Shown one piece after another: positions 3,084-30,101 of a stretch of 64,000 nucleotides of DNA (positions within the stretch are counted from its first letter, which is position 1; the number at the start of each line of letters is the position of its first letter). The position numbers and the translations under genes were made by a program. Source of the stretch: a virus; IMG/VR virus record IMGVR_UViG_3300025018_000101, positions 32,001 through 96,000 of that record. One strand, written 5' to 3'. A model generated the notes under the pieces. That model was not told the DNA's origin. It saw nothing but the letters and a program-made list of their open reading frames with translations, and ran no database searches.

Positions 3084-4148
3084 ATGCCGATCCTCGACAT
3101 CCCACCTGACCTCGTCGCTCCGTCCGGCCCCACGCTCGGGACGCAGCGTCGACGGGCGACGGCCTCGGGCGGCCGTCTCGTCTACGAGACCGAGACGTGG
3201 GTCACCTACCAGGGCGACCTGCCAGACGTCGGCGTCTTCACTTACCGCATCGCGGACCCGGCCGACCCTACGACCGACGTCCTGATGCGCGTGGCGACCC
3301 CGGCGGACCTGGTCACGTGGGGCGCCGACCGGTGGGCGGCTGTGGACGCGGGCGAGGGCTACTTCCGCCAGGGGTACCTCCTACGGCAGTTCACCGACGT
3401 TCGGGCGGCCACCCAGGACGCCCAGGTGGTCCAGGAGCTCGTCGACCTGCTCGTGACGACCTGGGCGACCTACCAGGACGAGTTCACCACTGAGGCGCTC
3501 GTCGGCGGGGTTGAGGACCTGTCCTGGCCCTTGCCTGACGCCACCCTGCTCGAGGGCCTCGTGGCGACCTACGACGAGGCGGTCACCGCTCGCGCGGCCA
3601 AGGCGGAGGAACTGGTCGACAAGGCGACGGAGGTCACCGCAGCGGCCGCTCGCGCCGCCGAACTCGACGCCGACGTCCTGGCGCTCACCGCAGCCGCGGA
3701 CCAGGCATCTGCGGTCTCCGACACGCTCACCAACTCCCTGGCGGGCTTCGTCCTGTTCTCCACGGACGCGGCCGCGTTCGCTGCCAACGTCGAGGGCGGA
3801 ACCGACGTCTACCAGGACACGGCGACGGCCTCGGACCCCGCGTGGGCGTGGTTCAAGGCCGAAGGGATCGTACCGCTGGCGAAGGCGGACTTCGACGCCA
3901 GCATCGCGAGCGCGGCGGCGTACATCGCCGAGATGCGGAGGCAGACGGCCAACGCCTCGGATGTCTACGCCGCCCTGGCGGCCCAGGTCGTGTCGCGCAC
4001 CTCAGCCCTGACGGTCGCGCGCCAGACCCTGGCGACGGCATCGACCGAGAAGATCACGCTCCAGTACGAACTCAATGCCCTTACCGCCGAGGTCGCCGCG
4101 GCTACGGCAGCCGTCCTGGCCGTGGACTCGGGCTACAGCTTCACCTAA
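3084..4148 (+). CDS. Hypothetical virion protein with C-terminal coiled coil
   Basis: GAGG RBS; Ala-rich heptad-like C-terminal half; ends at a hairpin. Confidence 0.7.
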   Translation: MPILDIPPDLVAPSGPTLGTQRRRATASGGRLVYETETWVTYQGDLPDVGVFTYRIADPADPTTDVLMRVATPADLVTWGADRWAAVDAGEGYFRQGYLLRQFTDVRAATQDAQVVQELVDLLVTTWATYQDEFTTEALVGGVEDLSWPLPDATLLEGLVATYDEAVTARAAKAEELVDKATEVTAAAARAAELDADVLALTAAADQASAVSDTLTNSLAGFVLFSTDAAAFAANVEGGTDVYQDTATASDPAWAWFKAEGIVPLAKADFDASIASAAAYIAEMRRQTANASDVYAALAAQVVSRTSALTVARQTLATASTEKITLQYELNALTAEVAAATAAVLAVDSGYSFT

Positions 4149-4180
4149 AAGAAAGCCCCCGGCAGGTGCCGGGGGCTTTC
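4145..4180 (-). terminator. Hairpin + TTTTAG terminator between convergent genes
   Basis: Inverted repeat GAAAGCCCCCGGCA / TGCCGGGGGCTTTC, followed by TTTTAG on the minus strand. Confidence 0.85.
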
Positions 4181-4196
4181 GCCCCGCTCGATGTGC

Positions 4197-5696
4197 TCAG
4201 AACCCGGCGGCGCGCGCGAGCGCGCCTGGGCCGTACCCGCCGATGACGTACACGACGCGGCCGGGCGTCTCCGTCCGTTTGGCCTTGTGCGAGAGGCCGT
4301 GGCTCACGTGCCGGATGAGCACGAAGGCCAGGTCGCCCTCGCCGAGGCGCCCGATCGCCGAGCAGACGGTGTCGTCTGGCACTCCCGAGGGGAGCCAGAC
4401 GGCGTCGTTGGCCGCGTATGCGCCCGTCAGCGCTTTCGTGATCGCCGGCCGGGCGGCGCCGCCGACGATCAGGATGTTCCGACCCTTGAAGGGCGACCCG
4501 TCGACCTCCGGGTCCTCGGCGTCCTCCTCGGCCTGCGCCGCGGCCAGGAACCTCTTGACCGCGGACTTGACGGGCTTTGCGCTCCTGGTGTTCCACACGG
4601 ACACCGGGAGGGTCGCCAGCGCCCCGAGTACGCGCTGGTCGAGGGCCATGCCCTCTTGCACGGCGTCGGCGACCGCGTCGCGGAGGGCGTTCCGCGTCAA
4701 GGTCCCGTCCTGCTCCGCGTCGAGCCACATCTCGACGCGCGCCTGCCCGGCCCCCTGCGTCACGACGTTCGGGTCGTCAACCCCGAACGCCAGCAGCTCC
4801 GACAGCGCGTACTCCGCGTCGTCGGACCAGGAGCCGCCCGAGCGCGGCTCCTGGTCACGGCCAAAGCCGTGGATGAAGCCGCATTTGAGGTCGTCCGCGA
4901 CACACCGGGTGCGGACGAACAGGTTCCACTGCTTCAACTGGGCAGTGTGCCCAGGCGTCGGAGCGCAACCGCCGAGGTGGCGGAGGCGCGCCGCGGCGTA
5001 CCGGAGCAGCTCCCGCTGCACGTCCAGGGGCTGCGACTGAGCCGCAACCCAGACTGCGGCCACCGCCTCCCGGGCTCGGCCCGCCTCGGCCTCCCAGTTG
5101 TCGGCCTTGGAGAGCCACGAGGCCGCCGGGATCCTCCCGTACCCTCGGAGGAACTCGGAGACCGCCCTGCGGTCTACGGCGGGTTCCTCCCGCCCCCTCT
5201 CCTCCGCGAGTTCGAGCTCGAGGCGCGCGAGCTCCTGGCGTCGCTCCGCCAGGAGACCGACCTGATGGCCGGCCGCTTCGAGGAGGCCGGCGACCTCCCT
5301 CTTCCGGTCGGCCTCGAGGGCCGCCGACTCCTCAAGCGCGCGCCGACCCTCCGCCGCCTCCAGGGCCGCCTCCTGGTACCTGGCCGTCGCGGCCGCCGCC
5401 AACGCCGAGGCGTTGTCGGCGTTGGCGACGAGCGCCACGGCCTCCGCCTCCAGCTCCTGGATGCGGGCGAACAGCTCCGCCTCCAGGGAGGGGTCGGCCA
5501 TCGGGGCCGCGACGGGAGGCGCAAGCACCACCTCGCCCTTGTAGACCGCGCGGCCGAGGTCCTGGAGGGCGCCCTTGAGCGCCTCCGAGGCCTCGACCAT
5601 GTCGGCCCGCTTACCGCCCCCGAGGGCGGTGTTGATGACGGCCGCTTCGCGGGCGGCGACGGCGGAGAGGAGCGCCTCGAATTTTGCCTGGGACAT
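4197..5696 (-). CDS. Coiled-coil protein with C-terminal DUF2325-like domain
   Basis: Start reset to ATG 5696 (GGAG RBS). C-terminal ILIVGG...DLAFVLIRHVSHGLS resembles DUF2325 from memory. Confidence 0.6.
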   Translation of the reverse strand: MSQAKFEALLSAVAAREAAVINTALGGGKRADMVEASEALKGALQDLGRAVYKGEVVLAPPVAAPMADPSLEAELFARIQELEAEAVALVANADNASALAAAATARYQEAALEAAEGRRALEESAALEADRKREVAGLLEAAGHQVGLLAERRQELARLELELAEERGREEPAVDRRAVSEFLRGYGRIPAASWLSKADNWEAEAGRAREAVAAVWVAAQSQPLDVQRELLRYAAARLRHLGGCAPTPGHTAQLKQWNLFVRTRCVADDLKCGFIHGFGRDQEPRSGGSWSDDAEYALSELLAFGVDDPNVVTQGAGQARVEMWLDAEQDGTLTRNALRDAVADAVQEGMALDQRVLGALATLPVSVWNTRSAKPVKSAVKRFLAAAQAEEDAEDPEVDGSPFKGRNILIVGGAARPAITKALTGAYAANDAVWLPSGVPDDTVCSAIGRLGEGDLAFVLIRHVSHGLSHKAKRTETPGRVVYVIGGYGPGALARAAGF

Positions 5697-5720
5697 GAAG
5701 ACTCCGGGGTTGTGTCCCGC

Positions 5721-5749
5721 TTGCTCAGTGCCGGCGGGACGGGTAGAGT
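5721..5749 (+). promoter_or_regulatory. sigma70-like promoter
   Basis: TTGCTC-17 nt-TAGAGT upstream of 5787. Confidence 0.6.
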
Positions 5750-5786
5750 GGCAGGGTCGAGTCAGACGTCCACGACGGAGTACGCC

Positions 5787-6824
5787 ATGCCGATCATCGA
5801 CCACACCAGGGACCGCGGCGTCATGCTGCAGCCTATCTTGCAGCGACGTCCTGACCTTGTGTCAAGGATCAAGGTCGCTGCCGAGGCGCTGAGCCAGACC
5901 AAGCGCGGGGCGTACGCATGGCCCGAAGCAGGGCTGTTCCCCGTGGACACGCCGGAGAACACCGCGCTGTCGTACCTGTACGTCGGCATGCAGGCACGCG
6001 ACGTGCCCCGGGGGGTCCAGTACAAGGTGGCTTCGGCCGCGGTGGCTTGGGGCCTCGACATAGGCGCCCTGACGAGCGCCCTGACCGAGCGCCGGGACCT
6101 GACGAAAACGGCTGCGCCTCGCGTCGACCCAGACGACTACGCGCTGCCGGCCGAGCGCCGCCTGCGCATCAAGACGGCCGACGAGGTCCAGGCTGCGCAG
6201 GCTGCGCTGGCTCGGTACTCGAGGGACCTCGGCATGATCAAGACGGCCTCGGCAGCGGTGCGGATCGTCAACCGCGCCAGGGCCATTGGCATGAGAGAGA
6301 GTGACCTCTCCCCGGCCACGAAGACCTACGCGGGCCTCGTGGCCTGCGACCTGTACAAGCTGGCCGACGCTCTCACGGCCAGGGCCGTTGCGGCGCCGAC
6401 TCCATCGTCGCGCAGCGCCTACCATGACGCGTCGACCGCTGCCCACGCCCTGGGGCGGACGGCGCGCCTGTCCACGGATCGCGCGACCCTGTCGAAGATC
6501 GCGTCTCACATCGACGCTATCGACCAGGCCTCAGGCGTCCGGAGGAAGCACCCGGGTCTGCCGGACCCGCTGATGGCCGTGTTCAACACGTCGAAGGTGG
6601 CCGGGGGGACCATCGACCTGGCGGGCGTCCAGGCAGACGTCAACAAGCTCTCGGCGCTGGACGCGGGTACCTTCGAGGACGTGCTCGGTCCCGAGTTCGT
6701 GGCCGAGATCACCGACGCCTCGGGCGCCGTCGACCCGCAGCTCATCGCCACGGTCATCCCCACCCTGCCCCTCGACATGAAGCGCGCGCTCGGGGCTGCG
6801 CTCAAGAGCGTGGTGGGGGTGTGA
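5787..6824 (+). CDS. K-x-A-rich putative head protein with DUF6582-like repeats
   Basis: ATG 5787 with GGAG RBS; the upstream part of ORF 4191 is an antisense shadow. Two repeats, YAWPEAGLFPVDT and YALPAERRLRIKT; 8 K-x-A motifs. Confidence 0.7.
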   Translation: MPIIDHTRDRGVMLQPILQRRPDLVSRIKVAAEALSQTKRGAYAWPEAGLFPVDTPENTALSYLYVGMQARDVPRGVQYKVASAAVAWGLDIGALTSALTERRDLTKTAAPRVDPDDYALPAERRLRIKTADEVQAAQAALARYSRDLGMIKTASAAVRIVNRARAIGMRESDLSPATKTYAGLVACDLYKLADALTARAVAAPTPSSRSAYHDASTAAHALGRTARLSTDRATLSKIASHIDAIDQASGVRRKHPGLPDPLMAVFNTSKVAGGTIDLAGVQADVNKLSALDAGTFEDVLGPEFVAEITDASGAVDPQLIATVIPTLPLDMKRALGAALKSVVGV

Positions 6825-6825
6825 C

Positions 6826-7539
6826 GTGCCCTTGACCGGCCTGCGAATCCCCGAGGTGTCCACCGGCCGCGCCGTGCTGATGCTCGGCCGCAAGGACACC
6901 GTCGCCCTGCTGGCCTACCGAGCGGCCTGCGCGCTGGCTGGCCAGGACGTGGCGGACTTCGACCCCGAGGCGTTCCGCATGGTCGCCACGGAGACGTACG
7001 GCGCGACCCTGGACGAGGACGTACTCGACCGCGTCGAGGCCGTCTCGACGCTGATCGTCAACCCGGCGGCCTTCCTCGACGACGCGCACACCTTCGAGAG
7101 CATCGTCCTGGCTTTGTGCGGCGAGCCCGTCAACACCAACGTCATGCAGGAGCCTGAGATCTGCTGCCTGTGTTGGGGAGTTCGGCACGGCCTGGAGCTC
7201 GTCCAGCACTTTCATCCGGCGTCGAGAGAGCTCGACGCGTACGGTGCGTTCGGCCGCGAGGTCCGGATGTACATCGCTGCCCTCCTGCACCTGGGGGGCT
7301 ACGTCGTGTGCCCCAACAGCCTGGAGTTCGCCCAGGCGGCGCTCGACATGGAGCACTACGCCCCGAGTCTGTCCGCGCGAGTGCAGTCCATGTGGGACAA
7401 TCTCGACAAGGACAATCTCGAGGACGTGACGTACGAGGACACCGCCGAGGGAGTGCAGCTCAGTCGCCTGGCGACGTGCTACCTCTACGACCTCGAGCAG
7501 CAGAAGAAGCTGACCGAGCAGGTCCTCGCCATCCTGTGA
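6826..7539 (+). CDS. Hypothetical protein
   Basis: Starts 1 nt after the previous stop; typical codon usage. Confidence 0.75.
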   Translation: MPLTGLRIPEVSTGRAVLMLGRKDTVALLAYRAACALAGQDVADFDPEAFRMVATETYGATLDEDVLDRVEAVSTLIVNPAAFLDDAHTFESIVLALCGEPVNTNVMQEPEICCLCWGVRHGLELVQHFHPASRELDAYGAFGREVRMYIAALLHLGGYVVCPNSLEFAQAALDMEHYAPSLSARVQSMWDNLDKDNLEDVTYEDTAEGVQLSRLATCYLYDLEQQKKLTEQVLAIL

Positions 7540-7545
7540 GACCTC

Positions 7546-8142
7546 ATGCCCTACATCCTCTACCTGGCCACTGACGTGGCCGAGCTCGAGCTGGTCTACC
7601 GCGACCGGCTGGCGTCTGTACTGCAGGCGTCCGTCGCCCTCGAGGAGATCCCGGATCTGGCCCTGCTGTCCCTGGCGGGCCCCGACGGGGTCACGCTCGT
7701 CGACTGGAGGCGGGACGTCGTCACGCCGAAGGTATGGCTCGTCGGCCCTGAGCTCGCCGAGCTTGAGGCGCTTCGCCACGCGCACCTGCTGCGCGAGCAG
7801 CACGCTGAGGCCCTGTCGATGCGATGGGCTACCGGGTCGACCCCGCGAGAGGCGGAACAGTCGCCCGAGGAGGCGCTCATCCGAACCTTCACGCGGATGG
7901 ACGCCCACGACCGCATCCGCCACGTGTACAAGACGGCGAGGCCGTCGGGTCGGGCCCTGACGCGCATCCAGCGCATCCGCGACTACGCCTCGGAGCTCAG
8001 TCACGTCATCAACGCGTCGATGCCCGACTGCGCGGACAAGAGCCGCGCCCTGGGACAGATCGAGGCCGCGGTAGCCACGGCCGTCATCGGCCTCTGGCAG
8101 GCGCAGGACAAGCTCGTCCCGCGGGAGGGGGAGGGGGCATGA
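7546..8142 (+). CDS. Protein with C-terminal Acb2/Tad1-like helical hairpin domain
   Basis: C-terminal IQRIRDYASELSHVINASMPDCADKSRALGQIEAAV matches the recalled pattern IR..A.ELA..I...CPDSREKSLA.T.LEEA. Confidence 0.55.
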   Translation: MPYILYLATDVAELELVYRDRLASVLQASVALEEIPDLALLSLAGPDGVTLVDWRRDVVTPKVWLVGPELAELEALRHAHLLREQHAEALSMRWATGSTPREAEQSPEEALIRTFTRMDAHDRIRHVYKTARPSGRALTRIQRIRDYASELSHVINASMPDCADKSRALGQIEAAVATAVIGLWQAQDKLVPREGEGA

Positions 8143-8594
8143 CGGCCACGCGTCGACTGGCGCCGAAGTACCTGCTTGAGGCGCTCCGAGAGTTACTCGA
8201 GACGCCCACCGACAAGCGTGCGCAGGAAGCCCTGGACCTGGTCATCGAGTACCAGGACCCTATCGCAACCGCATACGTGGTGCAGCACCTGATGGCGGCC
8301 GGGTTCAGGGTCGCCATCATTGCGGAGTCGCAGGCGGCCTTGGAGGCGCGCCTCGTCCGTGCACTCGACCTCCACTCCCGCGTCGGGGCCGAGATTCAGC
8401 AGCGGTTGCTCAACCCGCCCTACGTCTGGCGCCCGGACGCGCCGGCCAGCCCGGAACGTGTCGACGTCCCTCCCCTGAGGGGGCGGTACACGGACGACAC
8501 GCCCGTGGTGTCCGAGGAGTTCGCCCGCCTGTACGGCGGGACGCCGCCGGGGCGCAGCTCAGTCCCCGACGCAGAGGAGTGCCCCGACCCCTGA
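8139..8594 (+). CDS. Hypothetical protein
   Basis: ATGA overlap with the previous stop; GGAGG RBS. Confidence 0.7.
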   Translation: MTATRRLAPKYLLEALRELLETPTDKRAQEALDLVIEYQDPIATAYVVQHLMAAGFRVAIIAESQAALEARLVRALDLHSRVGAEIQQRLLNPPYVWRPDAPASPERVDVPPLRGRYTDDTPVVSEEFARLYGGTPPGRSSVPDAEECPDP

Positions 8595-8831
8595 AGCGCG
8601 CCGCGTGCGGGCGTCTAAAGGCGTGACCGCGCCGAGCGACTCCCGCGCGGCAGCCAGGCCGCTGCCAGGGTCTGCCCAGCGCAGTCGGCGGACCGGTGCG
8701 TTGGGGCGACCGAGCCTCTCGTTCGCACTTTCACGTTCACCCACCCCCTCCGCCCTCCGCCCGGACTGGCGGGGGAGACTAAACGCCGGCCCCGCTGGCA
8801 CACCGCTCCCTACGGGGTGCAGGAGAGACTT

Positions 8832-9068
8832 ATGGCCCGAACTGAGTGGTTTGCGTTTTGCGCCTGGGGCGCGGGGTCAGTCCCCACCCCCAGGGTCGTC
8901 ACGTCCGTGGCTGAGGCGGACAGCGCTGCGAGCCGGTGGCGTGATTCGTGCGCCAGCAAGCGCGGTGCCCCCGCTGCGGCCGACGTGCGCCTGCTGGGGC
9001 CTTTCGCGACCCGACGAGAGGCCCGCGAGGCGGACATCAGCGGTGGCCCTGTCGTCAAGACGATCTGA
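8832..9068 (+). CDS. Small hypothetical (early-type) protein
   Basis: AGGAG RBS preceded by a small hairpin; MARTEWFAFCAW... Confidence 0.6.
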   Translation: MARTEWFAFCAWGAGSVPTPRVVTSVAEADSAASRWRDSCASKRGAPAAADVRLLGPFATRREAREADISGGPVVKTI

Positions 9069-9157
9069 CGCCTACCCCGCGCGACCCGCTCATGCTGGCG
9101 CGCGAGGGTTCTTCCCCGCAACTGCCCCGTCACGGGGCACACGACAAGGACAGCAAC

Positions 9158-9682
9158 ATGGACAGCAACAGGGACATCGGCATCAACCGCCGCGTTAACA
9201 AGGCCCTGTGGGCCTTGTGGCACTCCCCCGACGACGCCAGCGCCATGGGCCTGGCCGCGGCGGAGGTCGCATCGCTGCGCGATGCGAACGTGCTCGAACT
9301 GCCGGGGGCTAGCTCCCGGCAGCGCGCCATCAAGCGCGCTATCGGAGCGATCGAGCGTGCCGTCGGGCACGCAAGGTCGCAGACGCCCCACACCTGGCAG
9401 GTCACGTCCCTGGAGGAGGGCGCGATCATCTCGGAGGGCTGGGCGGCGACCCAGCCATCCGCCAGGTTCGTGAGCCAGGCTTTGGGGGGATGGGCCCCCC
9501 GGCTCGACTGGAAGAGCTGGACCCTGTGCCACCCCAGGTGGATGGTGCTGGGGGCTCACCTGACGCCGGACCCCAGCGGCCCGGGGCGCTGGTCGTCCTT
9601 CAACGAGCACGTCCACGGCATGGGGATCGTGTCCGGGGAGGCCCTGGTCGAGGTCGACCCTGGGACCGACCCGCGCCGCTAA
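9158..9682 (+). CDS. Hypothetical Trp-rich protein
   Basis: AAGGA RBS preceded by hairpin TGCCCCGT-C-ACGGGGCA; ATG at 9158. Confidence 0.6.
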   Translation: MDSNRDIGINRRVNKALWALWHSPDDASAMGLAAAEVASLRDANVLELPGASSRQRAIKRAIGAIERAVGHARSQTPHTWQVTSLEEGAIISEGWAATQPSARFVSQALGGWAPRLDWKSWTLCHPRWMVLGAHLTPDPSGPGRWSSFNEHVHGMGIVSGEALVEVDPGTDPRR

Positions 9683-9702
9683 ATGCGTGCCACCCCGCGC
9701 CA

Positions 9703-10012
9703 CCCATCGAGGAGGGCGCGCGGGGAATCACGCCCGAGAGGGCAAGCGCCCCCCGTGGGGGCAAAGGAGTGACCGTGACTGTGACCGTGACCGCCGCAGA
9801 CCTCGAGGGCGCCGACCTCTACGGCGCCAACCTCTCCGACGCCATCCTCGAGGGCGCCAACCTCGCCGTCGCCAACCTCACCGGCGCCAACCTCCGCGGC
9901 GCCAACCTGTTCGGCGCCGACCGTTGACCCCCTCCCCTCGCGTAGCCCATCGAAGAGGGCGCGCGGGGATAACGCCCCCACGGGGGCAAGCGCCCCCACG
10001 GGGGCACAGGAG
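9703..10012 (+). repeat. Two copies of a ~67-bp leader element (9703-9769, 9946-10012)
   Basis: CCCATCGA(G/A)GAGGGCGCGCGGGGA...two hairpins...GGGGGCA(A/C)AGGAG directly upstream of two consecutive ORFs. Confidence 0.85.
9775..9927 (+). CDS. Very short pentapeptide-repeat protein (possibly truncated)
   Basis: AGGAG RBS then GTG; about 8 A(D/N)LxG-type repeats; N-terminal (VT)n encoded by GTGACC repeats. Confidence 0.65.
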   Translation: MTVTVTAADLEGADLYGANLSDAILEGANLAVANLTGANLRGANLFGADR

Positions 10013-10018
10013 CCGATC

Positions 10019-10840
10019 ATGACCGCCACCGCCACCGCCACCGCCACCGCCACCGCCACCGCCACCGCCACCGCCACCGCCCCCACGTTCAGCCGGCGGG
10101 GCGTGACGTGGGACGACGTCCGCTTCCTCCACCGCCACGGGTGGCTGCGCCACCAGCCTTCGGCCGCCTTGGCCGCCCGCGCCGCCGAGGCGGACGGCGC
10201 CATCCGCGACACCGACGACATCGTCGTCGGCCTGGCCAACTACCGCGCCTTCCGCGCGGCCACGGACGCCGTCGCCGAGATCGGTGGCCTGGACCTCGGG
10301 GGCGGGTTCATGGAGGCCAGGCATTGGCTCCGCCTGGCACGCGTCCTCCGCGGGCGCCGCGACGCCAACGAGGCGTGGGGCTCCCCCGGGGGCCGGGCCC
10401 TGTACGGCGACGTGGCGAACGCCGTGCACGCGCTTTTGGAGATGACGCCGTGGGGGCCCCACGGCGCCTCCTTCCGCGGCACGTGCTCCGCGCCGGGTTC
10501 CGGGCGGGCGTCGCTCCGGGTCGAGGTGCAGGGGCGCCTCGTGCTCAGCAGCACCCCCAACATCCTCTACGTCGCGGACGAGGCGGCGGAGGACGCGAGG
10601 TACCGGGCCACGCGCCTCGAGAGGCGTCAGGGTGCCCTGCGGTACGAGGACGCCCTCGGGCGCCTCGCCCGCGGGCTGAAGCACGCCCGGCTGACAGAGC
10701 CAGGGTCCTTCGTCGGGTGGGGCTACCGCGTGGGCCAGGAGGGCGGGTGGTTCTACCGGACCCAGGAGCACCGCTGGGTCAGCGTCTCCGCCCGCGGGGC
10801 CTTTCGGCGGGCGGGCATACCCTGGCCCGAGGGGTGGTAG
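10019..10840 (+). CDS. Hypothetical protein with N-terminal (TA)10 tract
   Basis: AGGAG RBS; (ACCGCC)10 directly after the ATG. Confidence 0.7.
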   Translation: MTATATATATATATATATATAPTFSRRGVTWDDVRFLHRHGWLRHQPSAALAARAAEADGAIRDTDDIVVGLANYRAFRAATDAVAEIGGLDLGGGFMEARHWLRLARVLRGRRDANEAWGSPGGRALYGDVANAVHALLEMTPWGPHGASFRGTCSAPGSGRASLRVEVQGRLVLSSTPNILYVADEAAEDARYRATRLERRQGALRYEDALGRLARGLKHARLTEPGSFVGWGYRVGQEGGWFYRTQEHRWVSVSARGAFRRAGIPWPEGW

Positions 10841-10852: not shown

Positions 10853-10879
10853 CTAAAGAAGGCCCCCGTGACGGGGGCC
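10853..10879 (-). terminator. Hairpin + TTCTTTAG terminator
   Basis: GGCCCCCG-TGA-CGGGGGCC with CTAAAG on the plus strand; downstream of the minus gene ending at 10930. Confidence 0.75.
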
Positions 10880-10889
10880 GGCCTGAGAC

Positions 10890-10928
10890 GCCTCTGCGGG
10901 GCTGAGCCCCGCAGGGGCCTCTCTTTAG
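10890..10928 (+). terminator. Hairpin + CTCTTTAG terminator
   Basis: GCCTCTGCGGGGCT-G-AGCCCCGCAGGGGC followed by CTCTCTTTAG. Confidence 0.75.
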
Positions 10929-10929: not shown

Positions 10930-11904
10930 TCACGCCGGGGTGCAGCCGTGCAGCGCCAGCGAGGCTGCTTCCGCAGCCGCCTGGCCGCTGCCGTGGGGGT
11001 CGAAGACGACGACCCGTCGAGCGGAGCGCAATCGGTTGCACGCTCCGCAGGTGTTGCAGGACAGCCCGATGGTCTGGGCAGGGCACGCCAGCGCCGTGAC
11101 GCCCTCGGGCAGCAGTTCGGTCAGGGCCTCGAGCTGGTCGTGGGGCCACACGACGGCGCCGCCAGAGTCCAGCAGGTCGGAGTAGTTCACCACGATGCCC
11201 GCAGCCTCAAGGCGCGGCCGCCACGGCTCGAACTCGGCCACCTCGACATGCGTATAGGTCCAGGCCCATGCACCGGCCACGCGCCGTGTGCGGATGGGGG
11301 ACGGGTCAGCACCCGTCAGGAGGCCGAGGTGCTCGAGCCCTCGGAGGTAGACGGTGTCGAGCTCGCCGTCTCGGTAGAAGTCCCCAGAGGTGTGCAAGCG
11401 CACCAGAGACCGGGCCTTGCGCGCCATGAAGACGCCGACGACGACGGACGCCAGGGACGCGGCGACGGATTCTGTCGCCCTGACGCTGTGCATCCGGACG
11501 TTGCCGCCCGAAGCGTAGCAGCCCTTGAGGTAGGGGCAGGCGGGGCAGGTCGCCCCTACGGGCCGGTACGTGGATGGGCCGGCGACCTTGCCGTTCCCGG
11601 TCCCGACCGGATTCGCGGTCTCGCCGGCGAAGAGCCGGATGCCCCCGCGGAGCGTCGTTGCGCTCCCTCGGGCGGCGATGGTCTTGTCCATCAGGGCGTA
11701 GAGCCCGGTGGTCCACGCTCTCTCGAGCGGGCCCCAGGACGCCCAGGTGGGTCGCAGCGCGGGCAGGGCCAGCATGGCCTCCCCCATCATCTGCGTGAAG
11801 GCACCCGCGTCTCCGCGGGGCAGGAACTTCAGTTCAGGGCATCCCAGGTCGGGGTGCCCATCTTCGATCATACGGACCTCCATGGGGCGCGTCCACCGCA
11901 GCAT
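10930..11904 (-). CDS. Gp88/DUF7227-like Cys-rich (Fe-S, radical-SAM-like) protein
   Basis: Motifs NGKV, TCPACPYLKGCYA, VRLHTSGDF, AWTYTH, CPAQ...CNTCGAC, FDPHG. Confidence 0.65.
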   Translation of the reverse strand: MLRWTRPMEVRMIEDGHPDLGCPELKFLPRGDAGAFTQMMGEAMLALPALRPTWASWGPLERAWTTGLYALMDKTIAARGSATTLRGGIRLFAGETANPVGTGNGKVAGPSTYRPVGATCPACPYLKGCYASGGNVRMHSVRATESVAASLASVVVGVFMARKARSLVRLHTSGDFYRDGELDTVYLRGLEHLGLLTGADPSPIRTRRVAGAWAWTYTHVEVAEFEPWRPRLEAAGIVVNYSDLLDSGGAVVWPHDQLEALTELLPEGVTALACPAQTIGLSCNTCGACNRLRSARRVVVFDPHGSGQAAAEAASLALHGCTPA

Positions 11905-11923: not shown

Positions 11924-11931
11924 CTTATACC
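11924..11931 (-). promoter_or_regulatory. GGTATAAG putative phage-RNAP promoter
   Basis: Same motif as in the 28.6-30.4 kb cluster; about 20 nt upstream of ATG 11904. Confidence 0.6.
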
Positions 11932-13693: not shown

Positions 13694-14029
13694 ATGCCCA
13701 TGCACTTCCAGAAGGTCTTCACCCAGGCGTCCGCCGCATTCACGGACACGACTCCTGACGGCGTCTTCACACTCACGCAGGCCACCGTCGGGAGGGCTCT
13801 CGACGACCAGTACAGCAAGCACCAGGTGCAACTGCAGGGCACGTCTGGCGACACCTTCGTCGTCGACATCCAGGTGTTCGGTGACACCGCTTGGAGGACC
13901 TACAACTCCGCCGCGCTGGCCGAGGATACGGTGGTCCTCATCGATGAGGTCGTCGTCACAGCGATCCGCGTGACGGTCTCGACGATCAACGCCACCACGC
14001 AGCTCCTGCTGGTGTCGAGGGCCAGCTAA
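13694..14029 (+). CDS. Small beta-rich hypothetical (virion) protein
   Basis: GGAG RBS; T/V-rich. Confidence 0.7.
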   Translation: MPMHFQKVFTQASAAFTDTTPDGVFTLTQATVGRALDDQYSKHQVQLQGTSGDTFVVDIQVFGDTAWRTYNSAALAEDTVVLIDEVVVTAIRVTVSTINATTQLLLVSRAS

Positions 14030-14092
14030 AAATACCCCCCGGAGACGCAGAGCAACGACCTGTCAGCCATGACGGTCTGGCGCTCCGGGGGG
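14026..14092 (-). terminator. Long-loop hairpin + TATTTTTAG terminator for the replication operon
   Basis: CCCCCCGGAG (14035-44) pairs with CTCCGGGGGG (14083-92); CTAAAAA on the plus strand. Confidence 0.65.
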
Positions 14093-14098: not shown

Positions 14099-14677
14099 TC
14101 AGCTCAAGGTCGCCTCGTACAGCCGGAGCACTCGGGCGTCCGGCCGGGCGTACCCGAGCACATTCTTGAATGGGACGGAGACGCCCCTCCCTCGCAGGCC
14201 TGGCACCGACGAGCAGCGCCACCGGCGCTCTTCGCCAGGCAGCGGCGCCACCGTCAGGACGTCGGTCAGCGCGATGAGGCCCTCGGCGCGCTGCTCGTCG
14301 GTCGTGCCCCACGTGCCCACCAGCAGTGACCCCGAGGTCAAGTTGAGCGACGGCAGGGCCACGCACGTCCCGGGGGCGGAGGGGTCGAGGTCGCCCGGTG
14401 GGACGTCAACGTCTCCCACGGCCGTACGCCACGCCTCGAGGAGCGCGCACCCGGGCTCCCCGGACAGCCCGGCCCAGGCCGCGCCCGGGTGGACGCGGAG
14501 CACCTCCTCGATGCCTTCAATGGCGTAGGCCGTGTACCGCCCCTCCAGGTCCGGCACCATCACCCTCGGCGCGGTCAGCGCCAGCCACGGCGTGGGCGAC
14601 CCTGGCCCGAGGCCGCCGACCAGGAACACCTGGTTCGGCATGGAGATGGCGTGCACCGCCACGTTCTCAGTGTCCAT
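14099..14677 (-). CDS. Hypothetical protein
   Basis: Overlaps the polymerase stop; GGAGG RBS. Confidence 0.7.
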   Translation of the reverse strand: MDTENVAVHAISMPNQVFLVGGLGPGSPTPWLALTAPRVMVPDLEGRYTAYAIEGIEEVLRVHPGAAWAGLSGEPGCALLEAWRTAVGDVDVPPGDLDPSAPGTCVALPSLNLTSGSLLVGTWGTTDEQRAEGLIALTDVLTVAPLPGEERRWRCSSVPGLRGRGVSVPFKNVLGYARPDARVLRLYEATLS

Positions 14678-21378: not shown

Positions 21379-21433
21379 GTCCACTCCGGTTTTATGGGAA
21401 GCCGCCCCCGGGAGGTCGGCAGGGTAGTACGGC

Positions 21434-21934
21434 TCAGCCCAACGTCCTGGCGACCACCTCCTGAATGGCGCGCACGAAGGACAGACCGAGTTCGAGCGGG
21501 TCGAGCCCGCCAATGACACCGTCGACGCCGCGGAAGAGGAGTTCGACGGCCGCGGCGGCCACGCGTGCCCAACGCCGGGGCACGGCGCGCAACACCTCGA
21601 GCAGGAGCTGCGTCAGGGGAGACCGGTCCGGGTGGAGCCCGGAGAGGTCCTTGAGCAGGTCCAGGACAGAGACGTCCGGACGCTGCTGCTGCTGCCACAG
21701 GGCGTAGGCCGCAGCCAGGGAGACCAGTACCGCCGAAGCGGACGCCCAGACGAGCTCGGGCGTAGGGCCGGAGGCCACGTAGGTCTCCGCATCAGGGCCG
21801 CCGTACAGGCCGTCGGCCACCGCCCTGGCTTCATCCCCGTGTCCGAAGACCGAAGCTGCCAGGCCGTAGTGCCGTCGCCAGGCGACGGAGTCTCGATCGG
21901 GGCGCGCCTGCGCCCCCGGTTCCCGACCGTCCAT
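21434..21934 (-). CDS. Hypothetical protein
   Basis: GAGG RBS; part of the minus-strand operon. Confidence 0.6.
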   Translation of the reverse strand: MDGREPGAQARPDRDSVAWRRHYGLAASVFGHGDEARAVADGLYGGPDAETYVASGPTPELVWASASAVLVSLAAAYALWQQQQRPDVSVLDLLKDLSGLHPDRSPLTQLLLEVLRAVPRRWARVAAAAVELLFRGVDGVIGGLDPLELGLSFVRAIQEVVARTLG

Positions 21935-21940
21935 TGACGA

Positions 21941-22441
21941 TCACCTCGTAATGAGGTACGCGACGAGCGCCGTTCCAACCATCCCGACGATCACGCCAGT
22001 GCCAAAGAACACCGTCTCCGCCCACGCCGGGGAACGCCCCGCCTCTGTCAGGCTCGCCGCGCACAGTCGGAGGGCTGAGGCCAACTCGGTGGCGGTGTGC
22101 GAGGCGTTATCCACTTGTGCCACCGTCTTGGACAGCGTCTCACGGAGACGCAGTCGGTCCTCGTCGATCGACAGGGCGACCCCCGTCAAGAGCCTGAGCC
22201 GGCCGTAGAGGTCCACGTAGCCGTCGAAGAGCTGCAACACCAGGCGCGTGTTCTCCAGGTCGAAGCAGGCGAACTCCCGCCCCCCGCGCGTGCACGCCGA
22301 GAACACCGGCGGCCCTGCCTCCGACAGGTCCCTCGGCAGGGAGACGTGGAGCCCGTCAGCGGCCGGGCGGCTTGTCGCGGGGAGCAGGGACAGCGCGGCC
22401 ACCATCACCGCCGCCACGACGCTCAAACGGTGCGCTACCAC
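21941..22441 (-). CDS. Signal/TM + coiled coil + C-terminal TM protein (spanin-like candidate)
   Basis: Hydrophobic N-terminus, coiled coil, C-terminal VFFGTGVIVGMVGTALVAYLI; start position uncertain. Confidence 0.5.
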   Translation of the reverse strand: MVAHRLSVVAAVMVAALSLLPATSRPAADGLHVSLPRDLSEAGPPVFSACTRGGREFACFDLENTRLVLQLFDGYVDLYGRLRLLTGVALSIDEDRLRLRETLSKTVAQVDNASHTATELASALRLCAASLTEAGRSPAWAETVFFGTGVIVGMVGTALVAYLITR

Positions 22442-22565
22442 ACCGCTCGCAGCGCTGTACCGGACCCGTGCGGGTGACCTCTCCGCCGCACACGGGGCAC
22501 GCCCCGGGCGCTCCCGCCTTCTTGTCGTTGCCGTCATGGGTGTCCACTCCGTACTTCTCCATCAT
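22356..22565 (-). CDS. Small Zn-ribbon protein
   Basis: AGGAG RBS; CPVCG...CERCG..PFE. Confidence 0.7.
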   Translation of the reverse strand: MMEKYGVDTHDGNDKKAGAPGACPVCGGEVTRTGPVQRCERCGSAPFERRGGGDGGRAVPAPRDKPPGR

Positions 22566-23588: not shown

Positions 23589-23628
23589 ACTGCCTCCCTC
23601 TGGGCCATGCTGGCGTTGCCTGATGCAG

Positions 23629-23657: not shown

Positions 23658-23701
23658 GGCAGCGCAAACAACCCCGGTGCGATTTTGAAAGGAGCGCGTG
23701 C

Positions 23702-25447: not shown

Positions 25448-25824
25448 GCAGCAACCACCACCGGTTCAACGAGTCCTTCAAGTGGTCCGAGCACATGGCG
25501 ACCGCCGGCTACAACGGCAACCCGTCCATTCCTCCGGACCACCCGCTGGCCAGGCTCTTCTCCGACGGGGCGCCCTCGGCTCCAGTCGGACCCGGGTTCG
25601 ACCCGAAGACGTCCAAGGTGCGCTTCCGGCGCTTCGACCTGGACGACGAGGAGGAGCGCGAGGACCTGGAGAACATCCTGACGGACTGCATGCGCGGCCA
25701 GGGCAAGTTCCTCGACAGCCAGACCCTACACACCACCCCTGACGGCCGTGCGATCGTCACGATCTGCTGGGTCGAGTGGGAGGTCCAAACGGCGAAACGG
25801 CCCAAGGGTCTGGACGACGTCTGA
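25444..25824 (+). CDS. Hypothetical protein
   Basis: ATGA overlap with portal; AGGAGG RBS. Confidence 0.7.
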   Translation: MSSNHHRFNESFKWSEHMATAGYNGNPSIPPDHPLARLFSDGAPSAPVGPGFDPKTSKVRFRRFDLDDEEEREDLENILTDCMRGQGKFLDSQTLHTTPDGRAIVTICWVEWEVQTAKRPKGLDDV

Positions 25825-25840
25825 GGAGAGGCAGGTCACG

Positions 25841-28261
25841 ATGGCACTGAAACCCGACGTCGTTCTTCAGCCGCACCAGGAGTCGGCACGCACGCGGTTT
25901 CGCGCCAAGCCTGGCTTGCTGATCAACCACGGCCTGGGCTCCGGCAAGACCTTGACGTCGATGGCGCTGGCGGAGGATGTCGGCGGCCGCGCCCTCGTCG
26001 TCGTGCCAGCGTCGCTGCAGGCGAACTACCGGGACCAGTTGCAGAAGTTCGTCACCGAGGACCGACACGGCGACTACGACATCGTCTCCTACGACAAGTT
26101 CAGGGCGGACCCCGAGTCCTATCTCGACAAGGAGCCGTCCGTCCTGATCGTCGATGAGGTCCACCGCCTGCGCAATCCGGGTAAGAACCGGGACGCCATC
26201 GAGATGGCCCGCAAGCGCATCCCGCGCATGGTAGGGATGACGGCCTCGCTCGCCTCGAACACGCCGCTCGAGTCCGTACCCCTGATCAACCTCGTCGCCG
26301 GCAAGAGCGTCATCTCGCAGGCTAAGTTCAAGAGGGATCACATCGGCGAGATCGAGGTGAAGCCTGGCCTCGCGGGCCGACTGCTCGGCGCCGAGTCGGG
26401 CTATGTGCCGGTCATCATCAACCGCAAGGGCCTGCACGACAAGCTCGCCCCCTTCGTCGACAGGTACACGGGCAGCGACGCGTACCGGAAGTCGCTGCCT
26501 GGTCGCGTCGACGAGGTCGTCGAAGTGCCCATGTCGGCCCACCAGAAGGACGTCTACGAGGGCATCATCAACACGAGCCCGGCGCTGGCGTACAAGATCC
26601 GGCAGAACCTCCCGCCGAGCAAGAAGGAGCTCAAGGACCTCAACGCCTTCCAGACCGCGGCGCGTCAGGTCATGAACGCCACCGAGCCGTACGTCGACGT
26701 CCGCGAGGGCCAGGACCTGCCCTCGATGTCGCCGAAGCTCCAGCGCGTCGCGGACGACCTGGCGGCACTGGCGAAGGACGACCCCAACTTCCGCGCCGTC
26801 GTCTACAGCAACTTCCTCGATGCGGGTACGCGCCCCGTGCTGCGCGCCACCGAGACGGCCTCCGGCCTGTACGAGGGCTCGGTGTCCCAGAAGGAGCGCC
26901 AGAGGGTCCTCGCGCGCTACCACTCCGGCGAGGCCCCCGTCCTCGGGCTCAGCCCGGCGGGTGGCGAGGGTCTCGACCTGAAGGGCACCAAGATGATGGC
27001 GGTGCTCGAGAGTCACTGGAACCCCGAGGTCACCAACCAGGCCATCGGCCGCGCCATCCGCTACAAGTCCCACGATCACCTCCCCGAGGACGAGCGCTCT
27101 GTCATCGTCCGCCAGTATCGGTCGGTCTACCCCGACTCGTGGCGCCACCGCATCTCAGGCCGCCCCACGTCCATGGACGAGTACATCGCCACTCGCGCCC
27201 AGGAGAAGGCCACCTTCAACGAGGACTTCATGAACGCACTCGACTCCAAGCCGCGCTCCCGCGGCGTCAAAGCCGCCTTCAAGGTCGCGGGCATCCCCGA
27301 GATGGCCGCGCGCCTGATGGACAGCGACCTCGTCAACTCCAACAGCCTCGGCTACTCCCTGCTCCGCGCCGCCCCCGGCGCCGCCCTCAGCGTCGCCAGC
27401 CTCGGCCTCGGAGCTGGCGTGGCCAGCAGTGAGGACCCCAACGCCCCGCCCCAGTACCGAGCCCAGGGCATGCTCGGCGCGGGCATCGGCATGGGACTGG
27501 CGGGCGCCTTCGCCCCCGCCGTGCTCAAGTCCATCGCGCTCCGTCCAAAGGGACTGATGCTGAACGCAGAGGGCATCGCGGCCGCCCCGCTCGGCGCCCG
27601 GGGCCGGGCGCTCCACCTGGACCCGGCGTTCCTCGACGCGCCGATTCACCCGTCGCACCCCCTGTCGTGGCGCGGGATGCCCTCGGTGGCGGAAGAGCTG
27701 GAGATGAACGGTGGCCGGACCGACAGGCTCCCTGTGACCGGGAACACGGTGCTCGACCTCATGGGCCGGCTCCAGGGTGACCGGCCTCACATCGACGGCC
27801 GCCTGCCCTGGACGGGCGAGAACGCCTTCGACGGCGTCAGGCCGTGGGAGGGGGAGCGCCTCCCTGCCGGCGCTCTGGGCGCAGACCTGGGCGACTACGG
27901 CGCGGAGATCCCTGTGCTCGGCACGTACGGCGACAGGCGCACGATGTCCGCCGCCTACAACACCTCGCGGCGCCAGACCGAAGCGGCCGTCGACGCCGCA
28001 CGAGCCGCCATCGCGAACGCTCCCGAGGGCGCTGACCTGGCCTCGCTCCAGGACGCCCTGGACGAGGCGGAGAGCTCCCACACCCCAGGGGTCTGGTCCT
28101 CGGACGCTACGAAGGCCGTCATGGAGACCAACCCAGAGACGGCCCTCGGCGTGGGCGGCCAACTCGCGAGCCTGGCTGCCAGTGGCCTCGCAGGCATCGG
28201 CGGCTGGTTCGGCGGCAAGGCCCTCGGCCGAGCCCGGGCTGAGCGAGGCGAAGGGACCTAA
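25841..28261 (+). CDS. SNF2-like SF2 helicase fused to a Gly-rich/hydrophobic C-terminal extension
   Basis: LQPHQ, HGLGSGKT, VDEVH, GGEGLDLK, QAIGRAIRYKSH; then KAAFKVAG and glycine-zipper-like segments. Confidence 0.85.
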   Translation: MALKPDVVLQPHQESARTRFRAKPGLLINHGLGSGKTLTSMALAEDVGGRALVVVPASLQANYRDQLQKFVTEDRHGDYDIVSYDKFRADPESYLDKEPSVLIVDEVHRLRNPGKNRDAIEMARKRIPRMVGMTASLASNTPLESVPLINLVAGKSVISQAKFKRDHIGEIEVKPGLAGRLLGAESGYVPVIINRKGLHDKLAPFVDRYTGSDAYRKSLPGRVDEVVEVPMSAHQKDVYEGIINTSPALAYKIRQNLPPSKKELKDLNAFQTAARQVMNATEPYVDVREGQDLPSMSPKLQRVADDLAALAKDDPNFRAVVYSNFLDAGTRPVLRATETASGLYEGSVSQKERQRVLARYHSGEAPVLGLSPAGGEGLDLKGTKMMAVLESHWNPEVTNQAIGRAIRYKSHDHLPEDERSVIVRQYRSVYPDSWRHRISGRPTSMDEYIATRAQEKATFNEDFMNALDSKPRSRGVKAAFKVAGIPEMAARLMDSDLVNSNSLGYSLLRAAPGAALSVASLGLGAGVASSEDPNAPPQYRAQGMLGAGIGMGLAGAFAPAVLKSIALRPKGLMLNAEGIAAAPLGARGRALHLDPAFLDAPIHPSHPLSWRGMPSVAEELEMNGGRTDRLPVTGNTVLDLMGRLQGDRPHIDGRLPWTGENAFDGVRPWEGERLPAGALGADLGDYGAEIPVLGTYGDRRTMSAAYNTSRRQTEAAVDAARAAIANAPEGADLASLQDALDEAESSHTPGVWSSDATKAVMETNPETALGVGGQLASLAASGLAGIGGWFGGKALGRARAERGEGT

Positions 28262-28310
28262 AGAAAAGCACCCCCACCCCCGGAGGGGCGGGGGTGGGGG
28301 TGCTTTTCTT
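28258..28310. terminator. Bidirectional terminator (TTTAG tail on minus strand)
   Basis: 22-bp inverted repeat AAGAAAAGCACCCCCACCCCCG / CGGGGGTGGGGGTGCTTTTCTT. Confidence 0.9.
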
Positions 28311-28311
28311 T

Positions 28312-28533
28312 CTAGACCGGCGCGGGCGCCGGCGTCGTCGTCGTCGTCGCCGGGCCGGCGGGGCCGGCGGGGGCGGCTGCGGCTGCGGCCGCAGCCGCAA
28401 CCACCGCCCCCGCCGCCGCCGCCGTCAGGCGACGACGCCGACGCCTGACGGCGACGACGGCGACGGTGGTTGCGGCGACGACGGCGACGGTGGTTGCGGC
28501 GGCTACCGCGACGACTACAGTTCGCTTTTCCAT
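28312..28533 (-). CDS. Small Ala/Thr/Val-rich membrane-like protein
   Basis: GGAGG RBS after a TTCG hairpin; repeated VAATTVAV, then poly-Arg. Confidence 0.55.
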   Translation of the reverse strand: MEKRTVVVAVAAATTVAVVAATTVAVVAVRRRRRRLTAAAAGAVVAAAAAAAAAPAGPAGPATTTTTPAPAPV

Positions 28534-28673
28534 GGTGTCCTCCTGTCCCCGAAGGGACATACGGGCGCCGCCTGGAATAGCGACGCCCCACCTTTCACCC
28601 TGTCCAGCACCCGACGACATGTCGAGCGCCTCCAGGGCGGACTTCCAGACCATCTAGGTCCTTCAGTCAAACT

Positions 28674-28681
28674 CTTATGCC
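28674..28681 (-). promoter_or_regulatory. GGCATAAG putative phage promoter
   Basis: Recurrent motif, followed by AG. Confidence 0.65.
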
Positions 28682-28812
28682 AGTTTTGTCCCGCCATTTG
28701 ACACTTTTCAGTGCCATCTAAAAGAGAGTCACCCATCACACGCTCCGCGGACGACGCGGGCAGTGGTTGTTTGGGTGCGCTCTTCTGCCTTGGGGTGTCG
28801 GCGCCAGCCCCT

Positions 28813-28899
28813 CTACGCCACGCGTGTCGTCCACGCGTCTTGTAGTCCCTGCCATTTTTCTAAGCGCCAGCAGGCGGCGCGTGGCATGCGTTTCATCAT
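28813..28899 (-). CDS. Possible 28-aa micropeptide MMKRMPRAACWRLEKWQGLQDAWTTRVA
   Basis: AGGAGG directly upstream of tandem ATGs. Confidence 0.3.
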   Translation of the reverse strand: MMKRMPRAACWRLEKWQGLQDAWTTRVA

Positions 28900-29179
28900 G
28901 CCTCCTGTTCTGATGCTCGTTGCCTTCATGTCGGTGGCATCATCGCCGACAGGGGGAGCCGTACGCCGGCAGCGGTCCAGTCATGACGCTCGGCATGGCT
29001 GGGGCTGGGTGGTTATTTGTTACCGCGCCGGCCACCGGGCGCGTGGAGTCAGGCTCATGGCCCCTCCTGTGACGCGCCCCCGGCAGGGGGAGCGCGGTAA
29101 CTTCGCTGTCTGCCTCGGCCTGCCCCGAGGTGGGTCTTGTTTACGCCTGGGCGCCGACCCTATGTCGTCCAGGACCCAG

Positions 29180-29240
29180 GCACTACTTCGGGAATCGAAC
29201 CCGACTCGGAGCGAACAGCTCCGGCGCTCCAGCGCAGTGC
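29180..29240 (-). ncRNA. Minimal tRNA-like element (GUU in anticodon position, reduced D-arm)
   Basis: 7-bp acceptor GCACTGC/GTAGTGC; CGGAG-CTGTTCG-CTCCG arm; T-arm TCGGG-TTCGATT-CCCGA. Confidence 0.55.
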
Positions 29241-29295
29241 GTAATGTGGGGGTATAGCAGAGGACATGCTATAGTCTACACCCCTCACACAATCT

Positions 29296-29314
29296 CTTAT
29301 GCCTACTTTATACC
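29296..29314 (-). promoter_or_regulatory. Tandem GGTATAAA / GGCATAAG putative phage promoters
   Basis: Motifs at 29307-14 and 29296-303. Confidence 0.6.
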
Positions 29315-29327
29315 TCATTATTGCAAT

Positions 29328-29353
29328 CTAAAAGAGGGCGCCACTGCGCCCTC
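29328..29353 (-). terminator. Hairpin + TTTTAG
   Basis: GAGGGCGC-4 nt-GCGCCCTC followed by TTTTAG. Confidence 0.8.
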
Positions 29354-29373
29354 ATGAACCCGCGCGGAGAGCC

Positions 29374-29607
29374 CTATGTGGGCTCCGCCTGCGCGGCCTC
29401 GGCGGCCGCGGACACCAGGACGGCGTCCTCCGGCGCGCCGGGCTCGACGCGCGCCCACCCGCGCGTCGCCGAGGCGGCGCGCAGGGCCGACCGCTGTCGG
29501 TGCTGCTCGGCCGCAGCACCGATGACGATCCCCGTCCCGAGGGCGCCGAGAACCGCGGCGACGCCCCCTACCACGAGGGCCACTACCGAACCGATCGGTC
29601 TATCCAT
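29374..29607 (-). CDS. Small single-TM protein
   Basis: AGGAG RBS, ATG 29607; hydrophobic SVVALVVGGVAAVLGALGTGIVIGAAA. Confidence 0.65.
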   Translation of the reverse strand: MDRPIGSVVALVVGGVAAVLGALGTGIVIGAAAEQHRQRSALRAASATRGWARVEPGAPEDAVLVSAAAEAAQAEPT

Positions 29608-29661
29608 ACCCGGCCCTCCTTCGGCCAGGTGCGACCGCGGCATGCGGTCACTGTTCAGAGG

Positions 29662-29669
29662 CTTGTACC
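29662..29669 (-). promoter_or_regulatory. GGTACAAG putative phage promoter (variant)
   Basis: One mismatch to GGTATAAG; upstream of 29607. Confidence 0.5.
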
Positions 29670-29727
29670 AACACGAGGGGTGTTGCCGACGGCCGCATCA
29701 GGGCCTTGTTCCGTGAGGCCGCCTCAT

Positions 29728-29765
29728 CTAAAGAAACGCCCCCCCGGAGGAGAGGGTGGCGTTTC
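29728..29765 (-). terminator. Hairpin + TTTAG
   Basis: GAAACGCC...GGCGTTTC followed by TTTAG. Confidence 0.75.
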
Positions 29766-30026
29766 CCCCGCCGCCCCGTCGGGCGACAGTGGGACCGAGC
29801 GTCCAGCGCTCGCTTCGAGACAGGGCCTCTCTTCCCTGCCTCGGGCCTCCCTGAGGCCCAACACCCCCTCCGTCGAGGGGGTCGGCCCTGCCACGTCTGA
29901 CAGGGCCGGACGACCGTCGCCATCGAGAAGACGCACCCCGCGAGCTCGTCCCGGGGAAGGAGATTCCACCGACCTCCTGGGGTGCGTCTTGTCGACGGCG
30001 GCGAGACTAATTGCCTCGCTCATACT
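29766..30026 (-). ncRNA. Putative structured ncRNA (hairpin array)
   Basis: About 8 consecutive stem-loops, including a ~21-bp stem (29918-39 with 29979-30000) and three GACG-loop hairpins, lying between a promoter motif and a terminator. Confidence 0.55.
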
Positions 30027-30034
30027 CTTATACC
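30027..30034 (-). promoter_or_regulatory. GGTATAAG putative phage promoter
   Basis: Recurrent motif, followed by AG. Confidence 0.65.
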
Positions 30035-30063
30035 TGTCCAGATGCGATGATTGGCACTACCTG

Positions 30064-30101
30064 CTAAAAGAGAGCGACGGGGCAGAAGCCCCGCCGCTCT
30101 C
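30064..30101 (-). terminator. Hairpin + TTTTAG
   Basis: GAGAGCGGCGGGGC-TTCT-GCCCCGTCGCTCTC-TTTTAG. Confidence 0.85.

Follow-up and report, generated by a model that had tools for sequence, protein, structure and literature searches.

Bacterial intrinsic terminators normally have a U-tract of 7-9 nucleotides (nt), and 7-9 nt is also the canonical distance at which RNA is released. The single-subunit RNA polymerase (RNAP) of phage T7 obeys a class II termination signal, ATCTGTT, which does not depend on a hairpin, and the early terminators of phiC31 (Ingham et al. 1995) are reportedly a high-G+C actinophage case of suboptimal or tail-less terminators. Suboptimal U-tracts are described for high-G+C bacteria; in mycobacteria the RNAP depends on some U all the same, and NusG assists it (Czyz et al. 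2014, PMC3993855). In phiKZ, 61 terminators have been mapped experimentally, each a G+C-rich stem-loop and then TTAT (Putzeys et al. 2024, PMC10914365); their motif, BCCYCCCC..GGGRRGG plus YTTAT (PMC10914365), recurs in 201phi2-1 (PMC11512511). Here we analyse a window of 64,000 nt, bases 32001-96000 of the 155,236-bp IMG/VR record IMGVR_UViG_3300025018_000101 (69% G+C, estimated completeness 88%), which comes from an uncultured tailed phage with genes for a terminase, a family-A DNA polymerase, a primase and an SNF2 helicase, and in which a series of hairpins is followed by the short tail TTTAG. Our reading, to which we give a probability of about 0.6, is that these elements are terminators of the intrinsic type whose release sequence is specific to the lineage, and that the sigma-bearing RNAP of the phage itself is probably what reads them.

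TTTAG occurs 23 times in the whole genome, counting both strands, and 14 of these copies are intergenic and stand 0-4 nt past a G+C-rich stem-loop. All 14 come after a gene on their own, T-tailed strand; nine are found between co-directional minus-strand genes, where the opposite strand is non-coding, and five between convergent genes. A preliminary description of this DNA had listed at least eight hairpins with such a tail, and those at 4145, 10853, 10923 (plus strand), 14026, 28258, 29328, 29728 and 30064 indeed stand directly past G+C-rich stem-loops. Concerning its two weaker cases, the site at 28718 is weak but falls where a terminator is expected, and the one at 8615, with neither a compact hairpin nor a gene upstream on its strand, was rejected as a chance occurrence. 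Five of the 14 sites lie outside the window, at genome positions 103577, 105395, 135983, 136377 and 140169. Genes were called with a codon-usage model trained on long open reading frames (ORFs) with a high G+C content at third codon positions (GC3). Hairpins were judged by compact or perfect stems and by inspection, in preference to RNAfold thresholds; threshold scans (windows of up to 60 nt) were too permissive at 69% G+C and likewise in G001, a related genome described below.

The preliminary description had also named enrichment of TTTAG after hairpins as a check, and such an enrichment was found. Where a perfect stem of 6 bp or more stood before TTT, the tail was TTTAG in 8 of 15 intergenic cases, and AG followed in none of the 18 genic ones. 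With imperfect stems included, about 22 intergenic hairpins had a T-tail and 14 of them carried AG; over the whole genome AG followed 23 of 392 T-runs (about 6%), and the binomial p is about 2e-13 as computed for 14 of 20. The longer word YTTTAG was observed 11 times in the window versus 4.9 +/- 2.2 in shuffled sequences; the copy at 44951 (plus strand) is within a gene. Of the other words with this composition (TTTGA and GATTT, for example) most copies are genic, and none but TTTAG is concentrated between genes.

To describe the tails we aligned all 14 on TTTAG, so that the invariance of T-T-T-A-G is itself a result of site selection. The consensus is YYTYYTTTAG-R-T: positions -6 to -1 before TTT are nearly all C or T, the base after TTTAG is biased towards purines, and T stands at +6 in 11 of the 14. 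Beyond the G/C core of the stem there is a pyrimidine tract of 6-8 nt which ends in TTT every time; 3-5 of its positions are U and the remainder C, and the A-G is located at +7 to +9 from the end of the core. The tract can be read as a normal-length U-tract with C substitutions, in which only the distal three positions are fixed as U, rather than as missing. The statement of the preliminary description that the tail stands instead of a long U-tract was thus too strong. Compact stems of 6-23 bp are present at 13 of the 14 sites, with folding energies of -19 to -47 kcal/mol. The stems are mutually unrelated in sequence, in length (19-58 nt) and in loop, so the shared tail is convergent and was not copied from a duplicated element. 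Several of them open with GARRG and close with CYYTC, so that the proximal part of the tract would be able to pair and lengthen the stem. About half of the tails match TTNTTT, a pattern recognised by NusG in some Gram-positive bacteria, so that a host factor may be involved in reading them.

Compared with canonical intrinsic terminators, these elements share the G+C hairpin, a tract of equal length (of pyrimidines here), the placement after genes and the existence of bidirectional examples between convergent genes; they differ in that U is invariable at the last three tract positions alone, C being frequent at the proximal ones, and in the A and the G that are fixed afterwards. With the terminators of high-G+C actinobacteria and actinophages they have in common the high-G+C context, the strong hairpins and the weak or interrupted U-tracts, but no description of a fixed AG exists for those terminators, and this phage may have a host of another kind; Pfam scans of 20 further proteins gave no clue to the host. 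The T7 class II signal is likewise a sequence-specific element read by a phage polymerase, but its sequence is unrelated, it needs no hairpin and its polymerase has a single subunit. The likeness to phiKZ goes further, since both phages possess a multisubunit RNAP of their own, both have a short fixed tail instead of a long U-run, and in both U-U-A is found directly past the stem. On the other hand, the tail is TTAT in phiKZ and TTTAG-R-T after a pyrimidine tract here; the stem is part of the motif there, whereas our stems are heterogeneous and do not match the phiKZ motif; the RNAP here is of the bacterial beta/beta' type with a sigma-like partner, in a subunit layout unrelated to the phiKZ enzymes; and the phiKZ sites were mapped by experiment, while ours are known from sequence. 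We therefore take the resemblance to be one of analogy, not of membership in the same class. Given this published precedent, the TTTAG tail is not the first type of fixed-tail terminator in a phage.

The sites are associated with a second signal. A promoter-like motif, GGYAYAAG, is present in 16 genomic copies, 11 of them intergenic, and nine of the 14 putative terminators close a one-gene or non-coding unit opened by an intergenic copy. The clearest arrangement consists of five back-to-back short minus-strand units beside the RNAP gene, from 30370 to 28258, each with GGYAYAAG at its start and a hairpin-TTTAG at its end. Following the direction of transcription, the core GGCATAAG at 30363..30370, divergent from the RNAP gene, opens the unit of a 60-aa ORF ending at 30108, closed at 30064..30104 by the stem GAGAGCG..CGCTCTC and TTTTAG. 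The core GGTATAAG at 30027..30034 (in the form GGTATAAGAGTATG) opens the following unit, closed at 29728..29765 by the stem GAAACGCC..GGCGTTTC and TTTAG; the stem base and tail of this terminator are nearly identical to a copy in G001. Then come the core GGTACAAG at 29662..29669 and, at 29328..29353, an 8-bp stem with TTTTAG that closes a small membrane-protein ORF (29374-29583); the core GGCATAAG at 29296..29303 and the weak terminator at 28718..28775, a long irregular hairpin with a gap of 7 nt before TTTTAG, at the end of a unit of about 570 nt that seems to be non-coding; and finally the core GGCATAAG at 28674..28681, which opens the unit of ORF 28312-28653. This last unit is closed at 28258..28315 by a perfect palindrome of 23 bp that is bidirectional: its minus side carries the tail TCTTTAG, and its plus side, with the tail TTTCTAG, follows the gene for the SNF2 helicase, the TAA stop of which is part of CTAAAG. 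From TTTAG to the next promoter core the distance is 24-36 nt and variable.

Two of these units deserve a remark of their own. The unit of about 570 nt (28740-29300, minus strand), from its GGCATAAG core to TTTTAG, is without a convincing ORF and has inside it a tRNA-like T-arm (GGTTCGATTCCC), so that it may be a phage non-coding RNA; ARAGORN and Rfam, run on the region of the short units, returned no known RNA. The unit 30027-29728 is likewise without a convincing ORF.

In the region of these sites genes are on the plus strand up to about 10.8 kb and thereafter form alternating blocks, those on the minus strand at 10.9-11.9, 14.1-23.6 and 28.3-30.3 kb and the plus-strand blocks between them. 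At 10853..10879 (minus strand) an 8-bp stem (10861-10879) and TTCTTTAG close the one-gene unit of 10930-11871 (DUF7227), opened by the core GGTATAAG at 11924..11931 (minus strand). Facing it, at 10886..10928, the sole plus-strand member of the set closes gene 10019-10840 with a 13-bp stem and CTCTCTTTAG. These are two different hairpins, each with its T-tail on one side only and both with tails ending in TTTAG, and the pair thus acts as an internal control which indicates that the tail is directional. At 4145..4180 (minus strand) a 13-bp stem (4151-4180) followed by TTTTAG closes the minus-strand gene 4197-5696, and its CTAAAA doubles as the TAA stop of the plus-strand gene 3084-4148. An overlapping plus-strand ORF, 4191-6824, was considered as the neighbour of this site and discarded: its first 1.5 kb have an antisense-type codon composition and are unconserved, conservation in relatives being found only from about 5760 on. 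The minus-strand ORF 4197-5696 has instead a coding-type composition (GC3 of 0.92), and from these two observations the site at 4145 is downstream of a real minus-strand gene. At 14026..14092 (minus strand) the long replication operon, whose last gene is 14099-14677, has at its end a long stem-loop with a 10-bp G/C clamp and then TATTTTTAG; here too CTAAAA doubles as the TAA stop of a plus-strand gene, 13694-14029. Together with 28258, these make three of the five convergent sites at which CTAAA is the stop codon of the opposing plus-strand gene. The promoter of the replication operon is host-like (TGGACA-17-TACAGT), and other operons have host-like -10 boxes of the TAnnnT type.

As a separate observation, G+C-rich hairpins without a T-tail occur between genes of the long minus-strand operons (window 21379-22533; genome 127191-127239 and 129781-129856, minus strand); they may be attenuators or RNA-stability elements and are distinct from the TTTAG class.

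The phage encodes an enzyme that could read these signals. Its RNAP large chain (30438..36149, plus strand; 1903 aa) unites beta and the N-terminal half of beta' in one protein, carries an intein-like insert, and is our candidate for the reader of the TTTAG signals. A sigma-like domain forms the C-terminus of an 834-aa NUDIX-containing protein encoded upstream of the window (genome 20045-22549, plus strand); it is 32% identical to gp10 of Salmonella phage Arash (E 3e-34), and its match to Sigma70_r3 is just below threshold (24.8 bits against a cut-off of 25.3 bits). A search of the genome for the Pfam sigma domains r2 and r4 gave nothing. RNAP beta, beta' and gp10 rank with the most abundant proteins of Arash virions (PMC10585845); virion packaging of the RNAP is shown for this distant relative only, and the Arash RNAP is just 35% identical to the one described here. 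Plausibly, then, the short units are early units read by a virion-delivered phage holoenzyme, in which case their terminators would be its stop sites. Regarding the insert in the beta part of the large chain (31700-33400, plus strand), it has PHROG matches to intein-bearing thymidylate synthase and terminase families, and LAGLIDADG/Hint Pfam domains occur in some relatives.

The mechanism that we propose is as follows. A G+C-rich stem-loop would form in the nascent RNA, followed by the pyrimidine tract of 6-8 nt with U as its last three bases, and the RNA would be released 7-9 nt past the stem core, at or beside the A-G that ends the tract. The fixed tail would then be a lineage-specific pause or release sequence placed on top of the generic mechanism of hairpin plus U, and the reader would most likely be the phage RNAP, made of a beta-beta'N fusion, beta'C and the sigma-like domain. 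The confidence that we attach to the parts of this scheme is not the same. It is very probable that the elements are terminators that form 3' ends, and we lean slightly towards a functional need for the A-G. That the terminators are tuned to the phage RNAP is a tentative suggestion; since most TTTAG hairpins close short, early-looking GGYAYAAG units, this is the polymerase to which they would most likely be tuned. It is rather doubtful that UUUAG(R)U is a release signal which the sigma-bearing RNAP of this phage lineage needs beyond the hairpin.

If such a release code did exist, the early units would be insulated for the phage enzyme, with the host RNAP reading the sites differently, and phiKZ would be joined by a second, independent example of a multisubunit phage RNAP that has a terminator code of its own. 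The phage belongs to a large and mostly uncultured family of 140-190 kb phages that have a bacterial-type RNAP with fused and split subunits and whose transcription signals are undescribed; no paper was returned by a full-text literature search that combined TTTAG with terminator, hairpin and phage. The observations bear on whether phage multisubunit polymerases in general use short fixed terminator tails like that of phiKZ, and having matched start (GGYAYAAG) and stop (hairpin-TTTAG) signals beside the RNAP gene makes the rules of the enzyme testable in vitro. A practical use is a better annotation of transcription units in high-G+C phages, where terminator finders based on long U-runs miss most such sites.

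We evaluated the conservation of both signals in relatives. The region had no BLASTN match among 50,697 phage records, and a single-protein search in IMG/VR with the helicase found no close relatives. The comparison was made on 80 IMG/VR and 80 metagenome loci around RNAP homologues of at most 54% identity. The closest genome examined was G001 (RNAP 52% identical, 53% G+C); RNAP homologues of 56% identity also exist. In G001, TTTAG and then N-T follow 6 of about 16 good terminators (background 5.5%, p of about 1e-4), mostly in units driven by GGTATAAGA; elsewhere the same genome has classic bidirectional long-U terminators without AG. Upstream of its RNAP gene the arrangement seen in our phage is repeated, with, in order, a promoter, a small membrane-protein gene, a hairpin of stem base GAAACGC..GCGTTTC with TTTAG, and the next promoter. 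Its promoter cores are ten copies of GGTATAAGA or GTTATAAGA, one of which equals the window copy at 30027 over 14 nt. In AT-rich distant relatives with different hosts the core is TGGTATAAGA, of which GGYAYAAG is the high-G+C form; this family-wide core, kept across 34%-69% G+C (G001, L074, L083, L059), resembles an extended -10 box with its final T replaced by G, and its persistence in phages of different hosts suggests a specificity factor encoded by the phage. In another relative, G002, TCTTTAG is about 4-fold enriched, but there it is coding and not after hairpins, and we discarded it. Judged from these loci, the TTTAG tail is a feature of a sub-lineage and not a property of the whole RNAP family. 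The preliminary description had counted a lack of the AG in relatives as a point that would overturn it; the AG recurs in the closest relative and does not in the wider family.

Some results weigh against the reading that we favour. Over the distant relatives AG follows hairpin T-runs at the background rate, in 31 of 376 cases in the IMG/VR loci and 7 of 215 in the metagenome loci (38 of 591), so that it is not a general requirement of this RNAP family. Even in G001 at least one GGTATAAGA unit is closed by a plain U8 terminator without AG, which indicates that the AG is not obligatory there. Since the site at 14026 ends an operon with a host-like promoter, the tail is not exclusive to a private class of promoters. 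Stop-codon overlap alone could fix the A and the G at 4145, 14026 and 28258. It should also be said that we infer termination itself from sequence, and that the comparison of tails covered phage relatives. The preliminary description had proposed a sequence-specific termination or processing signal for the phage RNAP: the terminator-like form, the orientation of 14 out of 14, a tail beyond chance, the presence of genes for the RNAP and the sigma-like domain, and the promoter motif of the phage family at the start of most of the units concerned agree with it, but the reading enzyme is something that we only infer, and the host-like replication operon speaks against that part.

Three other explanations of the tail have to be weighed. 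These could be ordinary intrinsic terminators for the RNAP of a high-G+C host, in which case the AG would be a by-product of composition, of stop-codon overlap and of a common mutational history, and the phage RNAP would play no part. High-G+C lineages are poor in canonical U-tracts (PMC3993855), many operons of this phage have TAnnnT -10 boxes and one of them ends at 14026, distant relatives of AT-rich hosts have plain long U-tracts, and three tails double as TAA stops, all of which would fit. Composition, however, predicts AG in about 6% of cases against the 14 of 14 observed, stop-codon overlap is lacking at 11 sites (where CTAAA as a mere stop codon was thus rejected), and the same tail is present in G001, which at 53% G+C has probably a different host. 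Moreover, the few T-tailed hairpins of the plus-strand structural operons do not have TTTAG, reading TTTCCATT (after the capsid gene), TTTAAC and TTTCTAG; overall we consider this explanation unlikely.

We give a still lower probability, and call improbable, the idea of an element for RNA processing or stability, by which the RNA would be cut in the single-stranded UUUAG beside the hairpin, the hairpin then shielding the new 3' end. The fixed position of the tail relative to the hairpin would suit a cleavage site, promoters 24-36 nt downstream make the units separate anyway, and the T-less hairpins between genes of the long minus-strand operons suggest that hairpins have other RNA roles here. 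Against it, no nuclease of such specificity was identified, a pyrimidine tract with the length of a U-tract is a need of terminators and not of cleavage sites, and the sites between convergent genes fit termination better. Finally, the tail could be a signal of the other strand or of the next unit, CTAAAG being a stop codon or a promoter-like box, or the T-run with AG being an upstream element of the next GGYAYAAG. In three cases CTAAA does supply a TAA stop; the complement of the tail, CTAAAGAG, shares 6 of 8 positions with the promoter core CATAAGAG; and in G001 a single T6-AG that lacks a hairpin precedes a promoter by 31 nt. But nine sites have no gene on the opposite strand, and the tail as a part of the next promoter was rejected, because the spacing to the core varies and the five convergent sites have no downstream promoter; we regard this last possibility as very improbable.

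Other features of the region were noted during the analysis. A structured element of about 70 nt (CCCATCGARGAGGGCGCGCGGGGA ... GGGGGCA.AGGAG) is present in copies in two consecutive intergenic stretches, 9683-9780 and 9928-10018 (plus strand), just before start codons, and could be a shared leader or a regulatory RNA. Two identical ORFs of 252 aa stand in tandem at 48328-49086 and 49244-50002 (plus strand) with a 44-aa ORF between them, either a recent tandem duplication or an assembly repeat. Beyond the window, a divergent intergenic region of 1.26 kb at genome 106484-107740 (74484-75740 in window numbering) is unusually A+T-rich for this genome, has several TATA-like boxes and is a candidate control or origin region.

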